The notes: generated by a model from the letters alone, not told the origin. Numbered from the stretch's first letter, positions 27,708 to 36,610 are shown. The stretch is 64,000 nt of DNA from Verrucomicrobiia bacterium (GCA_041395165.1 JAWLBA010000001.1:136068-200067); one strand, 5' to 3'. Numbers and translations are program-made.

Positions 27708-27784
27708 TTTGACTTGCAAATTTTTTTTTATTCTCTAACGTAAATTATCTTCAAAAATTAATTCAGGAGAAAAGGAAATTATTT

Positions 27785-28927
27785 ATGAAAAAAATCACAC
27801 AATTTCTTTGTGTTGCAAGCTTGGTAGGTTTTGCATACTTAGGACAATCACAAATCTCAATTACAGGCAGTTTGCCTCAGAATTATAACCAGGATTTTGA
27901 TAGCTTGGGAACGAACAATGTTACTTGGACAGATAATTCAACTATTCCAGGTTGGTTTTATGTTCGCACAACGAATACCGTGGATGCAGGACCTGTAGCA
28001 CAACTTGCCGCAGCCGATGGAACAGTTGATCTTTTCACAGCGGCTGCCCCCCTCAATTTGGGAACTATCGCTGACACTGATAGAGCCTTGGGTGCTCGTC
28101 CTGGACTCGGTATATTTGGTTTTCCTCCACTCAGTGAGTTTTTTTACGGCGTCCAATTTGTTAATAACTCTCTAAGTACAATCACCAATGTTAGCATTGC
28201 TTATAATGGTGAACAATGGAGAGATAACAATAATATGACTCCTGGAACGCTCGACTTTTTTTATCGCGTAGGTGGTACTGATTTTATCGGAGACACTAAT
28301 AATGTTGGTTGGACAGCGTTTCCTGCTCTTAATTTTAGCAGTCCTAATAATGCGGCAATGAACATGCCTATTGACGGAAATGCCCCTGGTAATCGTACAG
28401 CGCTTAATGGTAATATTTCGGTTAACTTAGCTCCAGGTGAGGCATTTTGGATTCGTTGGTCTGATCTTGCTGATACGGGAAATGGTGATCACTTAGGAGT
28501 TGACGATGTTAATATTACCTTTGATGGGATCAATCCACCGCCAGTATTGGGGGGTGTAAAGATTGAGTTGAAAAAGCCGAAGGTGGGTAAGACACTGAAG
28601 TTTAAAGGTAGCAAAGGCTTTAAATTGAAAGCATTTGTTTTCTCTGAAAGTAATACAGTGACTAAAGCTTCCTATGCGGCATTTGGTGGAACCAACAGTC
28701 CGACCAATTTGGCCTTTATTGATGCGGGTAAATTTAAGGTTTTGACTAAAGGCAAATTATTCAAGAAAAAAGGAGTCAAAGCTATAGTGCAGAGCACGAA
28801 AACGACCAAGCCAGGTGTGGGGGTAACTGAAGGGCCTGTGACATTGTTAGTGAGAATCTTTGGTGGTAGTAATGATGCAAGCCAAGTGACTTTCACTAAT
28901 ACATTTAGTGATGTTAAGATAAAATAG
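27785..28927 (+). CDS. secreted protein, tandem-array family member 1 (N-domain + Lys-rich C-domain)
   Basis: Signal peptide. Family islands QISITG.LPQ.Y.Q.FDSLG, PGWFY, DRALG, YNGEQWRD, FFYRVGG, PGEAFWIRW, GVDDV. The C-domain has LKKPKVGKTLKFKG, GGTNSPTNL and QSTKTTKPGVG. Confidence 0.75.
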   Translation: MKKITQFLCVASLVGFAYLGQSQISITGSLPQNYNQDFDSLGTNNVTWTDNSTIPGWFYVRTTNTVDAGPVAQLAAADGTVDLFTAAAPLNLGTIADTDRALGARPGLGIFGFPPLSEFFYGVQFVNNSLSTITNVSIAYNGEQWRDNNNMTPGTLDFFYRVGGTDFIGDTNNVGWTAFPALNFSSPNNAAMNMPIDGNAPGNRTALNGNISVNLAPGEAFWIRWSDLADTGNGDHLGVDDVNITFDGINPPPVLGGVKIELKKPKVGKTLKFKGSKGFKLKAFVFSESNTVTKASYAAFGGTNSPTNLAFIDAGKFKVLTKGKLFKKKGVKAIVQSTKTTKPGVGVTEGPVTLLVRIFGGSNDASQVTFTNTFSDVKIK

Positions 28928-28950
28928 ATAGTATTTTTAGCTTATTGAAA

Positions 28951-28982
28951 GGCCGATCCAATGCTTTGGGATCGGCCTTTTT
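28951..28982 (+). terminator. rho-independent terminator after array gene 1
   Basis: ggccgatcc..ggatcggcc stem followed by a T run. Confidence 0.8.
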
Positions 28983-29057
28983 ATTTATTTTAAACTTTTT
29001 TGTATTGTGTAATTTTTAATTTCTGTTATCAAAGGCTCCTTAATAAAGGAAATTACT

Positions 29058-33786: not shown

Positions 33787-33804
33787 TTTTTAGATGTAAC
33801 TTTT

Positions 33805-34782
33805 ATGGAAGAAGAAGAACAGATTGAACAAACGGAAGAGTCCAGTGAAGAAACTCAAGAATTTGGTGATCAAGAACAATCTGTTCAAGACGAACCCACT
33901 GAAGAAATTGAGCCAGTTGATTAGACTCAAAACGAAGCTGTTGGAAATGTCATAGACCCAAGCCAAGCTCTTAATCGGGTTGAGGCTTCTGATTTAGAAA
34001 AAGCGGAAACAGCTCCTACTGATGTAAATCAAAATTCAAATTCCCATTTTTCCTTGGGTGCTACAAAATCTAAATCTCCTTTTTCCTTCAAAGGAGATGG
34101 CATTGATGAAGCCAGAGAAGAGTATAATGATACTGTTCAGAGAGCTAGGGGTGACTATCACGATTTGTCTAAAGAAGTGGGCGATTTTTCAAAAAAAATC
34201 GATAGTTTATCCGAGACGAGAGAGAGTCAAAGAGATTCAGCTCATGAAGAAGAGCCTGATGCTCCAGAGCAAACTGAAACCACACCAGTAGAACCAGCAA
34301 TGATCCAAGAACGTCCTGGAGAATGGGAGCATGTACAAACTAAAGATGGAAAAAATAGGGCGTTTGTTGGAAATTATAGAGATCCTCAAGATCCTAACGC
34401 GCCAAAATTAGGTAATTGGGATTTAAATATTCCTGGAATGAAAGTTCAAGCCAGAAGCAATGACTATAAAAACGACATGGAATTAATTTGGGAACAGGCT
34501 GCTTTGCCAACTACTTCAAATACGCCACCTGCACCAGCAAAGATAATTAAATCCGAATGTGTTGTGCAAGAAACAGATAAAACTTCCAAAATAAGTTGTG
34601 TTTTCCCAAAACCCGATAAAAATTTAGATAATATTAAGTTAGGTTACACTCACTTTTTATCGGTAGATATTAAAAATGAAGCGGGTGGCAGAACTCGTAT
34701 GGATGTCATTTGGGATAAAGCGGCATCATCTGCTCCACAGAATGCTAATCCAGCTCCCAATGTCGCTCCGGTTGTTCATTAA
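33805..34782 (+). pseudogene. acidic protein P3, reading frame interrupted by an in-frame TAG (33922-33924)
   Basis: The MEEEEQIEQ start resembles P1/P2. The frame continues after the TAG into the 34054-34782 ORF (KSPFSFKG...). The only downstream start is a TTG with no visible RBS. Confidence 0.5.
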
Positions 34783-35069
34783 ATAAAGTATTTTTCAAAA
34801 AACAGTTGCTATAGCTTATATAGCGAATGGATAAATTTTTCTCTAATTAAAGTTTCTTGGCAAAAGAATTTATGAGCCTTATTATTATAAGGTTTTTGTT
34901 GCCAAATTTATCATAATACTTTGATTTTAAAAGATTTTTTAAAAATTTAACTAAAATTCAACCGTTTTTCTGATATTAAGATTTTTCTTTTGTTATAGGG
35001 CTCACAAAAAAATTATTAATAAAACATAAACTTTGTAATTTTTAAAACTTGTGTTTTATTGTTAGAATT

Positions 35070-36587
35070 ATGACTAAAGCAAAAGATGCTCCAGAAACTA
35101 AAGTGAAGCGTACGGCTAAAGTTTTTGGACAAATTTCTTCTCAAGATTCTCGATACCAGTTTGTTGATAAAAATTTTAGACAAGTTTCGGATTTACAAGT
35201 TACCAGTCCTGTTTTTGAACCAGGCATAGAACGTTACGTTGCTTACGTCGATGGACAATATAAAGAGGCATATTTTGTTAATTATGATCCCGAACAACGG
35301 ATTATGCCTGATGAAATTCGTAGGAGAATAGCTTTAGAGCAGATGAAATATGTTGATAAGGAAAAAGGTTTTACGACGGATGAAAAAGGTAATTATTACG
35401 ATAAACAAGGCTATTTAATTGTTGCACAAAAAAATATTATAAAAATAGGTGAGCAATTTTATTATATTAACCCTAAAGAACAAAAATTAAGTCCTAAAAA
35501 AGTGGAAACTGATTTCACTACGGGACTTGTCACTGCCGATGGAAAATCTTATGAGGCCAAAGGCGATTATATTTACGATTTTTGGGATAAAAATAAAGTT
35601 TATAATCAAGATGGCCAGCCTCTTCATTCTTTTAAAAATCCGTTTATTCATGAACATTTTCCGATAAAAAAATGGATCAATACTAAAGGACTAACCTATA
35701 TTTCTTTTCCTCCAGATTTATCGATGGAGGTAACGCAATCTGAACGAGTTTTCTATATTCAGTTCACGGAGGGAAATTGGTCGGATCAGGTAAAAACATG
35801 TAAACGCTTGCTAACGAGTTATGATCCCGTGACGCATGAACCTATGGATGTGGTTGCAATCGAATTTCATCGTGTAGAAGATGGAAAAAAGCCAGCGACA
35901 TTTCGTTCAATGCCTTTAGTTTTCAATGCGTTAAAAGATACAACCACAAGTCGGATTGTCAGTGATCAGATTAAGGCGTTCCCAGGAAGCGAACTTCAAA
36001 TTGCCCATCCAACAATTAGTGGTAATACAGAAAGAGTTTCAATGGGCAAAGTGTATTCTCGAGGGGTTATCGAAATTGATATCGTTATTTATAAAGACGG
36101 TAATGAAAAAGCAAACTTAGAGGTGGCTAAAGCTCAAATGGCGGTTCTTAAAGAAGATTTGGCTGCTGCGGGCATTGAAGTTAAAGTTGTCACAAAATTA
36201 ATTGATAAGACAGGCGACCTTGAGTTTGCTAATCCAGAAACTTTGGCTATTCATGCGCGAAAACAATTTTCCAATTCTAAGGGTATCACCATGATTATGG
36301 GTGGAGGAAATCATGAAAAATATTTTACAACGAAGGGAAATGATTTTTCCAGAAATGCTGGCAACGGTTTTTTTGTTTCAGATATTAACGATAAAAATGC
36401 TGCATCGGTTTTAACACTTCATATTTTAGAAATTGCTTCTGGTGATAAATCCCCTGATGCTTCAATACAACTCAATGCATCTGAGAGCGCTGCGAACCTC
36501 CAGCTCATTCATCATCCACTTATACAAAACCCTCGGATAACAGAATCGGTCAGGACGCCAGCATCCCAACCGGTTCTTGTTCCTTAA
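35070..36587 (+). CDS. hypothetical protein (about 505 aa), orphan family X, paralog of 2834-4522
   Basis: Same conserved islands as 2834-4522 (GYLIVAQKNIIKIGEQFYY, LTSYDPVTHEPMD, KDGNEKANL, ITMIMGGGNH, C-terminal PVLVP). ATG at 35070 preferred to the TTG at 35049. Confidence 0.6.
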   Translation: MTKAKDAPETKVKRTAKVFGQISSQDSRYQFVDKNFRQVSDLQVTSPVFEPGIERYVAYVDGQYKEAYFVNYDPEQRIMPDEIRRRIALEQMKYVDKEKGFTTDEKGNYYDKQGYLIVAQKNIIKIGEQFYYINPKEQKLSPKKVETDFTTGLVTADGKSYEAKGDYIYDFWDKNKVYNQDGQPLHSFKNPFIHEHFPIKKWINTKGLTYISFPPDLSMEVTQSERVFYIQFTEGNWSDQVKTCKRLLTSYDPVTHEPMDVVAIEFHRVEDGKKPATFRSMPLVFNALKDTTTSRIVSDQIKAFPGSELQIAHPTISGNTERVSMGKVYSRGVIEIDIVIYKDGNEKANLEVAKAQMAVLKEDLAAAGIEVKVVTKLIDKTGDLEFANPETLAIHARKQFSNSKGITMIMGGGNHEKYFTTKGNDFSRNAGNGFFVSDINDKNAASVLTLHILEIASGDKSPDASIQLNASESAANLQLIHHPLIQNPRITESVRTPASQPVLVP

Positions 36588-36610
36588 TGATGCAATAATA
36601 GGAGTTGGCT

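Follow-up and report, generated by a model that had tools for sequence, protein, structure and literature searches.

The genome of an uncultured Verrucomicrobiia bacterium carries, between mutL and a gene for an EamA transporter, about 9 kb of genes that are almost all without an annotated family, and the question raised by this locus is whether they belong together as one functional system or are neighbours of separate descent. The locus occupies positions 27,708 to 36,610 of a 64,000-nucleotide stretch of the metagenome-assembled genome (MAG) GCA_041395165.1 (JAWLBA010000001.1:136068-200067), for which an exact-sequence look-up gave locus tags of the form R3F23_008xx; this whole stretch is called the window here. 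A first-pass annotation had interpreted the locus as an accessory island encoding a candidate multi-component system, possibly related to the cell surface or envelope. We established the layout of its genes, their homologs, their similarities at the level of the fold and the synteny with related genomes. With a probability of roughly 0.7, it consists of chromosomal, vertically inherited, lineage-specific blocks that were joined by rearrangement in the common ancestor with a sister MAG, that is, of two or three unrelated gene blocks and not of one multi-part system.

Gene order in the window and in related genomes

The list of open reading frames (ORFs), the tRNA scan and internal tblastn searches confirmed the gene order and the layout on one strand that had been proposed before. 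On the plus strand, mutL is followed by three array genes (arr1 to arr3), a tRNA-Glu gene, the gene for a TPR protein, a fourth array gene (arr4), the genes P1, P2 and P3 and the gene X2; the EamA gene on the minus strand comes next (Table 1). The sister MAG GCA_019694135.1 (K1X66, contig L001) shows this order too, and all four of its arr copies are intact. In every relative outside this sister MAG, array, tRNA or TPR genes on the one hand and X and P genes on the other were found on different contigs or in different contexts.

Three metagenome contigs carry the first set of genes and neither P nor X genes (identities in brackets are to the window ortholog). The gene order is holA-...-parB-mutL(76%)-arr-arr-tRNA-Glu-TrkA(-) in L016, which has no TPR gene or arr4 either, parB-mutL(81%)-arr1 ortholog(73%)-arr3 ortholog(81%)-tRNA-Glu-TPR in L097, and TPR(88%)-arr4(67%)-leuS(-) in L004. 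Three further contigs carry the second set and no array genes, with the order trpC-trpF-trpB(91%)-X-X1 ortholog(71%)-P1(60%)-P2(69%)-P3 in L012, which comes from the same sample as L097, trpB-X-X2 ortholog(54%)-P-EamA(-) in L003, and X2 ortholog-P-P3(56%)-EamA(-)-MBL-YajQ in L014. The compared proteins are L012_181 for P1 and L014_304 for P3. The synteny check on these six contigs thus argues against the proposal of an island whose parts occur together.

Within each set the arrangement is stable. Tandem arr copies at mutL number two in L016, two in L097, three in the window (one of them broken) and four in the sister MAG, and the tRNA-Glu gene keeps its position downstream of the array in L001, L016 and L097. 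L001 and L004 both retain the TPR-arr4 pair. X and P genes are adjacent in the window, L001, L003, L012 and L014, and EamA adjoins P or P3 in L003 and L014. Judged from these gene orders, mutL-arr(n)-tRNA-Glu(-TPR-arr4) appears to be an old chromosomal block, and X-P-P3 a separate clade-specific cluster between trpB and EamA. Of the proposed single system, the part that stands is the association of P1-P2-P3, X2 and the X2 paralog X1, since X and P genes are always neighbours between trpB and EamA in four related contigs (L001, L003, L012 and L014); the unity of the whole 9 kb does not stand.

Since the X1 ortholog directly abuts P1 in L012, the closest relative apart from the sister MAG, the contiguity of arr4 and P1 is read as a lineage-specific rearrangement that is common only to the sister MAG. 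A 28-kb housekeeping segment (adk to mutL and the arr block, 4650-32735) separates X1 from P1 in the window and in the sister MAG only. The locus accordingly seems to straddle a rearrangement junction, which the gene orders place at 32736-32786 between arr4 and P1. Block A, in this reconstruction, would comprise mutL, the arr genes and tRNA-Glu, with the arr genes forming a tandem array in which each gene has its own terminator and the copy number goes up and down. Block B would be the conserved pair of the TPR gene and the head-only arr4. Block C would consist of P1-P2-P3 and X2 next to EamA, the distal half of an X/P cluster that is intact between trpB and EamA in relatives, and X1 would be the proximal half of this cluster, now 28 kb away.

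The intergenic regions were analyzed as well. Strong terminators or AT-rich leaders had been assigned to the whole region. They are present at arr1, arr2 and arr3, each of which has a strong GC-stem and T-run terminator downstream, a conserved AT-rich leader and an AGGA ribosome-binding site, but generic promoter and terminator scans of the whole region did not rise above shuffled controls. The terminators argue for separate transcription units at arr1 to arr3, which were probably duplicated along with their intergenic DNA. From the TPR gene onward the spacing is tight, with 19, 51, about 3 and 18 bp in the series TPR-arr4-P1-P2-P3, and a 287-bp spacer with 21% GC lies upstream of X2.

A scan of 185,579 GTDB species-representative genomes with peptide patterns found no X-family locus, the 80 loci returned were not informative, and the best mutL match was only 40% identical; no close reference genome was therefore available. 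JGI metagenome scans with P and X patterns gave no match, and a literature search on the accession GCA_019694135.1 found no paper. So far the clade appears to be represented by no more than two NCBI MAGs and some short metagenome contigs.

Table 1. Coordinates of the genes and terminators discussed, counted from the first nucleotide of the window
Feature	Position	Strand	Description
mutL	25863-27707	+	Left flank (translation); array genes follow in L001, L016 and L097
arr1	27785-28927	+	380 aa; exported; acidic jelly-roll head and basic Ig-like tail
Terminator downstream of arr1	~28947-28990	+	13-bp GC-rich stem, then T-run; RNAfold of intergenic DNA and alignment of upstream regions
arr2	29058-30168	+	Frameshift-broken array copy; ORF pieces of 158, 71 and 131 aa in three frames
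Terminator downstream of arr2	30188-30225	+	Intrinsic
arr3	30294-31415	+	373 aa; exported jelly-roll and Ig-like protein; copy used for the AlphaFold2 model
Terminator downstream of arr3	~31434-31478	+	Intrinsic
tRNA-Glu (UUC)	31544-31618	+	tRNA scan; Rfam
TPR protein	31634-31966	+	110 aa; Pfam TPR_2 and TPR_16, E about 1e-17; no signal peptide
arr4	31986-32735	+	249 aa; head-only array paralog without basic tail; 19 bp downstream of the TPR gene
P1	32787-33272 as annotated; ancestral C-terminus to 33327 in another frame	+	1-nt indel near 33261
P2	33331-33786	+	151 aa; clade-restricted; P1 paralog; no signal peptide
P3	34054-34782 as annotated; ancestral start 33805	+	In-frame TAG at 33922-33924; two W-motif copies; Pro-rich tail; repeat family D13
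X2	35049/35070-36587	+	505 aa (from 35070); X1 paralog; ends ...QPVLVP; no signal peptide
EamA transporter	36611-37522	-	Right flank; convergent; Pfam EamA
X1	2834-4522	+	X2 paralog adjoining trpB

The X and P families and their C-terminal tails

The paralogy of X2 with a gene elsewhere in the window was borne out, X2 and X1 being 28% identical over about 500 aa (E = 1e-49, internal tblastn). A word-indexed search with X2 returned only X2, its ortholog in the sister MAG (84%) and one metagenome protein (54%). A HMMER profile search of 1.84 billion representatives returned 18 proteins, 12 of which had E values of at most 1e-10. None of the family members matched a Pfam family, the distant relatives matched no Pfam peptidase family, and the profile gave no match among PDB sequences. 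The four most distant members of a 16-sequence alignment (P0143, P0144, P0147 and P0149) contain an HExxH motif, located on a helix that follows the conserved strands '...ITMIMGGG ... N.FF'; P0148, which is outside the alignment, contains the motif too. At this position X2 reads LTLHILE and X1 reads MVMKMML, and HExxH is absent from X1, X2 and 11 other family sequences, among them the fragment P0139.

The AlphaFold2 model of X2 shows N-terminal beta-hairpins, a beta-sandwich and a C-terminal beta-alpha-beta-alpha-beta domain (predicted template modelling score, pTM, 0.71). Domain-sized Foldseek matches were obtained to ecarin (9clp, probability 0.98) and ADAMTS-4 (4wki, probability 0.94), with template modelling scores (TM-scores) of only 0.19-0.37 and a predicted local distance difference test score (pLDDT) of 77 for the model. 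Matches of the whole model, to ferredoxin reductases and PIWI, were set aside as noise, and only the domain-level adamalysin matches were used. Because HExxH has been lost, the domain matches are of the adamalysin type and distant members keep the motif, we read X1 and X2 with moderate confidence as catalytically dead members of a rare zincin-like family. What connects them with adamalysin-type zincins such as ecarin and ADAMTS-4 are the domain-level Foldseek matches of the C-terminal alpha/beta domain of X2 and, in five distant family members, HExxH at the aligned helix. They differ in the absence of this motif and of a signal peptide from X1 and X2 and in the lack of any Pfam or PDB sequence match even by profile; two further features, the beta-hairpin repeats at the N-terminus and the conserved ending ...PALxP, occur in the X family alone.

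Further genes of this kind were seen in related sequences. The sister MAG has an extra X paralog, P0136 (485 aa), between trpB and X1 (L011, 10001-13190), which is absent from the window, where the gap between trpB and X1 is only 137 bp; L012 carries an extra divergent X gene at this place. In L009 (3679-6029), the gene for P0143, an HExxH protein, is directly followed by one for a 292-aa protein with the perfect metzincin motif HEVGHSLGLDHH and no Pfam match on record. This contig also holds a 538-aa ORF with a Pro-rich tail, which has the same length as the profile matches P0146 and P0148. Genomes of this kind may therefore harbour several dispersed genes of the zincin-like type.

With 33% identity (E = 1e-6), P1 and P2 are weakly related paralogs; their common core is FKNPLSF...GKPEIKELGVKGKFDW...VSG.F. 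P3, which is 70% identical to its counterpart in the sister MAG, shares the N-terminal '...KSPFSF.GDG' motif with both and contains two repeats, each ending in M[DE][LV]IW[DE][KQ]AA (the W-motif) followed by a Pro/Ser/Thr-rich stretch. A search with P2 gave only four matches among 5.8 billion clusters, all from this clade, and on these matches the P proteins appear to be restricted to it. P1, P2 and P3 have neither a signal peptide nor a hydrophobic segment. We infer a partnership of the two families, in which X would serve as a binding scaffold without catalytic activity and the P proteins would be its small, fast-evolving partners. Near their acidic N-termini, the P proteins carry short Phe-Ser-Phe(-Gly) motifs that are repeated, for example 'SSFSFGV', 'KNPLSF' and 'KSPFSFKGDG' (window 32787-34100 and the orthologs in L001, L003, L012 and L014). 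The starts of P2 and P3 are near-identical in their DNA (TATGGAAGAAGAAAAACAG and TATGGAAGAAGAAGAACAG).

The first-pass annotation had connected the acidic P proteins with a gene family at the end of the window, called family A here, through a tryptophan-containing motif and had taken this link for paralogy. Family A lies on the plus strand at 56020-64000 and has five complete genes (A1 to A5, starting at 56020, 56758, 58084, 61091 and 62338); a sixth, near 63250, runs off the window end. The proteins are Ala-rich and helical, have no signal peptide and end in a C-terminal Trp motif followed by a Pro/Ser/Thr tail, and the genes have a low GC content at third codon positions (GC3). A methyltransferase gene and an ORF resembling, by eye, the hopanoid radical-SAM gene hpnH lie among them, and an A4 ortholog is present on the sister-MAG contig that also holds the X1 region. 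Mutual similarity within the family is marginal, with only two pairs at E < 1e-3 (3e-4 and 6e-5, 14-sequence database). The motif is indeed common to family A and P3, which has two copies of it, but the match covers this short C-terminal motif only and does not amount to paralogy. For P1 and P2, kinship with family A was rejected since they gave no alignment at E < 1; the context of their 'GKFDW' is different.

X, P3 and family A have in common a particular kind of C-terminal tail. The extreme C-terminus P-[AV]-L-[VT]-P-COOH is found in 9-12 of 14 X sequences, compared with a mean column identity of 28%, and is among the best-conserved parts of the family; similar short tails ending in Pro occur in P3 orthologs and family A. 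Of all ORFs in 12 clade loci, a strict filter for Pro-rich uncharged tails let through P3 orthologs, two proteins of family A and one relative of X, and no others. The W-motif is nonetheless specific, as its pattern was found within the last 60 residues of seven proteins (P3, A1-A5 and one chance match) compared with 0.25 expected in shuffles, the pattern being defined post hoc. A terminal proline is present in 5 of 10 lineage-specific proteins and in 0 of 51 others (Fisher p = 4e-5), again post hoc and with related sequences in the set.

These tails bear on a different explanation, namely that the X/P cluster and family A are exported independently of Sec by a common C-terminal signal. They would then make up a set that resembles effectors or toxins and descends from HExxH metallopeptidases, and the small P proteins would be partners or immunity-like factors. 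It would fit the absence of signal peptides and transmembrane segments from the X and P proteins, the conserved X terminus, the confinement of Pro-rich uncharged tails to P3, family A and X relatives, and the excess of terminal prolines. It would also fit the HExxH motif in distant X relatives, one of which is followed by the protein with HEVGHSLGLDHH, and the small genes downstream of X genes in L003 and L014. However, neither the 64 kb nor the fetched loci showed any secretion machinery, X1 and X2 lack the catalytic residues, and P1 and P2 have no such tail and end in ...SG[SGK]F. In addition, the members of family A resemble each other only marginally, and the motif statistics are post hoc and drawn from related sequences. 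We therefore regard this explanation as unlikely.

The cluster was also compared with polymorphic toxin/immunity cassettes that have metallopeptidase toxin domains. The likeness lies in a large X protein with N-terminal repeats and a C-terminal zincin-like domain that is followed by small fast-evolving genes. The cluster differs from such cassettes in that the catalytic motif of X is absent, no trafficking domain was recognised and the P genes stand before or after X; Pfam toxin matches are below threshold and confined to P0146, the weakest profile match.

It is rather doubtful that the Pro-rich, uncharged tails of X, P3 and family A, preceded in P3 and family A by the Trp motif, are an undescribed C-terminal sorting or secretion signal of a barely sampled Verrucomicrobia clade. 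The marked set would then be exported pseudo-proteases and helical proteins, with the small conserved TPR protein as one possible receptor. A 273-aa coiled-coil-like protein without a Pfam family is encoded upstream of trpB (538-1359, minus strand) and ends in '...LAGWCKTDLSPAS'. It has a counterpart of at least 90% identity in the sister MAG, and a 273-aa gene with no Pfam match on record occupies the same place upstream of trpB in L011. This protein may be another member of the set that has a C-terminal tail and no signal peptide.

The array family

Scans of the island proteins and X1 with Pfam, NCBIfam, PADLOC and PHROGs gave no family beyond TPR. The description of the components as orphans holds in this sense, but it does not hold for the array proteins, as a word-indexed search with arr3 returned 248 homologs from several phyla. 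The four arr proteins are mutual paralogs (39-67% identity, internal tblastn), and arr1 is 78% identical to arrB of the sister MAG and 73% identical to its ortholog in L097. In keeping with their predicted export, they have a hydrophobic, signal-like segment at the N-terminus, which the X and P proteins do not have.

Full-length arr3 matches, comprising a head and a Lys-rich tail, come from metagenome contigs, this MAG and the sister MAG. The head alone, the N-terminal part of about 220 aa, matches many further proteins (E = 1e-19 to 1e-36), in which it stands right after the signal peptide. The modules that follow it there include the EEP nuclease/phosphatase domain (PF03372), CarboxypepD_reg (PF13620), Calx-beta, RTX repeats and Ig domains, and further fusions are to a PEP-CTERM anchor (PF07589) and a T9SS sorting domain (PF18962). 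Named sources of these homologs include Acidobacteriota, Acidimicrobiales and a cyanobacterium. Conserved motifs of the head are GW, DRALG, GEQWR, DGN.PAN and D..IDD. Head and tail differ strongly in charge, with an isoelectric point of about 4.1 for the head and about 10.3 for the tail, which has 21-23 Lys in about 130 aa. Elsewhere in the genome, between Kdo-transferase and radical-SAM genes, there is another arr locus of one or two copies.

The AlphaFold2 model of arr3, built on a 40-sequence alignment, has a pLDDT of 90.7 and a pTM of 0.73 and shows a jelly-roll followed by an Ig-like sandwich. Foldseek comparison with the PDB gave 34 matches at E ≤ 1e-3, mostly to MAM, CBM, Eph ligand-binding and adhesin domains. 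The top match was the MAM-Ig module of RPTP-mu (2c9a), followed by a streptococcal adhesin domain, Eph ligand-binding domains, CBM4/27/61 and the gingipain cleaved-adhesin domain; the E values of the MAM-Ig, CBM, Eph and gingipain adhesin matches were 6e-7 to 1e-4. Because the TM-scores are modest (0.25-0.5), the predicted likeness to these PDB domains is at the level of the fold and not of family membership. Searches with the sequence gave no match in Pfam, NCBIfam or PDB, and the alignment profile found none among PDB sequences.

Compared with the secreted jelly-roll and Ig proteins RPTP-mu (MAM-Ig), CBM4/27/61, Eph and gingipain K3 adhesin, the arr proteins share a predicted architecture of two beta-sandwich domains and the N-terminal signal peptide; in arr homologs the head is always at the mature N-terminus, with variable enzyme or anchor modules behind it. 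They differ from these proteins in the basic, Lys-rich Ig tail, and the combination of head and basic tail is confined to the arr proteins of this clade. With EEP (PF03372) nucleases/phosphatases and proteins anchored by PEP-CTERM or T9SS domains, the arr head has true sequence homology. The arr proteins of the window differ from them in having no enzyme domain and no sorting domain; arr1 to arr4 contain neither a PEP-CTERM motif nor Por_Secre_tail, which some homologs (P0121 and P0059) have.

The arr proteins are plausibly exported binding proteins. They would be exported by Sec, with the head binding an extracellular polymer or glycan and the polycationic tail (isoelectric point about 10) holding the protein on an anionic surface, e.g. 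the cell envelope or matrix. Both ligand binding and surface attachment are what we infer for the family.

Proposed alternatives: one system, an acquired island or decaying genes

Several observations weigh against the interpretation of the locus as unrelated blocks with the components described above. The gap between arr4 and P1 is only 51 bp long, and it contains no terminator, so that one transcript may cover both genes here. Only a small set could be compared, six short metagenome contigs and one MAG from one clade, and the ancestral order was derived from it by parsimony. The C-terminal tails that X, P3 and family A have in common suggest that their functions may be connected, and the P and X proteins have no signal peptide. 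For the components, the X2 model is of medium confidence (pLDDT 77, from 16 sequences), and the TM-scores of the fold matches are low for both the X2 domain and arr.

Some points suit the initial idea that all 9 kb encode a single system of many components at the envelope or cell surface, with X1 and family A as further components elsewhere. All genes are on one strand, the spacing from TPR to P3 is tight, the arrangement is kept in the sister MAG, X2 and X1 are paralogs, and P3 and family A have the C-terminal W-motif and tail in common. Yet the array/tRNA/TPR genes (L016, L097 and L004) and the X/P genes (L012, L003 and L014) lie apart in every other relative, and in L012 P1 has the X1 ortholog as its direct neighbour. 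Moreover, arr1, arr2 and arr3 each have their own terminator, and arr homologs occur as singletons at an unrelated locus. A single system is thus improbable.

Still less probable is a genomic island acquired horizontally and integrated at or near tRNA-Glu. A tRNA gene does lie in the middle of the stretch, and most of the genes have no annotated family. The locus is AT-rich, as had been pointed out (38.1% GC compared with 42.3% in the window; GC3 0.32 compared with 0.39 ± 0.05), but this shift of about 4 points is mild, the codon-usage distance does not exceed the range seen in neighbouring housekeeping genes, and GC3 is equally low in X1 and family A, outside the island. No integrase or transposase was found among the ORFs of 27.7-36.6 kb, all of which were listed and scanned. 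The 22-mer at the 3' end of tRNA-Glu occurs once in the 64 kb with up to three mismatches allowed, giving no att-like repeat, and no direct repeats flank the island. Plasmid and phage BLAST searches of the island matched the tRNA only, as did Rfam; PHROGs found no family, and PADLOC gave only weak generic TPR matches and no known defence family. Furthermore, mutL-arr-tRNA-Glu is present in relatives whose mutL is only 76-81% identical, which points to long vertical residence. With tRNA-associated genomic islands the locus thus shares a tRNA gene within a run of poorly annotated, slightly AT-rich genes; it differs in lacking an integrase, an att repeat and similarity to mobile elements, and its arrangement is kept at the same chromosomal site in diverged relatives. 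The present data refute a recent acquisition.

The sole mobile-element gene among the scanned ORFs of the window encodes an IS200-like Y1 transposase (54256-54684, minus strand; PF01797, E = 2e-28). Its neighbours are a nagA-like gene and a gene for a 101-aa protein without a Pfam match at E ≤ 0.1.

Three genes of the locus are disrupted. Compared with the intact arrC of the sister MAG (L001:8755-9863, 91.5% nucleotide identity), arr2 has uncompensated indels at about 29514 (+2) and 29730 (-1). Because of the indel in P1, the conserved C-terminus ...GPEPIPADLLKPGVTKVQGF is cut off and can be read in another frame, and in P3 the stop codon follows the ancestral ATG at 33805. Two essential genes of the window are broken as well: a frameshift near 18.4 kb divides alaS (16114-18854, minus strand) into two ORFs of 174 and 765 aa, and fabF (41535-42779, plus strand) has an in-frame TAA at about 42294, where AAA has become TAA in the expected 'RGAKIYGE'. 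Because of these two genes, errors in the MAG consensus are likely; all pseudogene calls in the window are therefore unsafe and were not relied on, and the pseudogene reading of arr2, P1 and P3 was set aside. A graveyard of decaying genes without current function, as the at least two indels in arr2, the 3' frameshift in P1 and the TAG in P3 might suggest, is highly improbable given the broken alaS and fabF, the intact state of every ortholog in the sister MAG and the intact and conserved arr1, arr3, arr4, P2 and X2.

Taken together, what appeared to be a single 9-kb system is, in the interpretation preferred here, a rearrangement junction between ordinary kinds of lineage-specific genes. The kinds of components are familiar, i.e. 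tandem exported beta-sandwich binding proteins and a clade-specific cluster with pseudo-zincins; the specific families are undescribed. At least four phyla have the exported jelly-roll head of about 220 aa, which is often joined to EEP nucleases or surface anchors; it has no Pfam or NCBIfam family and could be defined as one. The X proteins would represent a very rare zincin-like family, with 18 matches among 1.84 billion representatives, that has lost the catalytic motif in most of its members. Finally, the conserved tail shared by several families without a signal peptide points to a possible export or sorting signal, open to testing, in a clade of Verrucomicrobia that is as yet unsampled.

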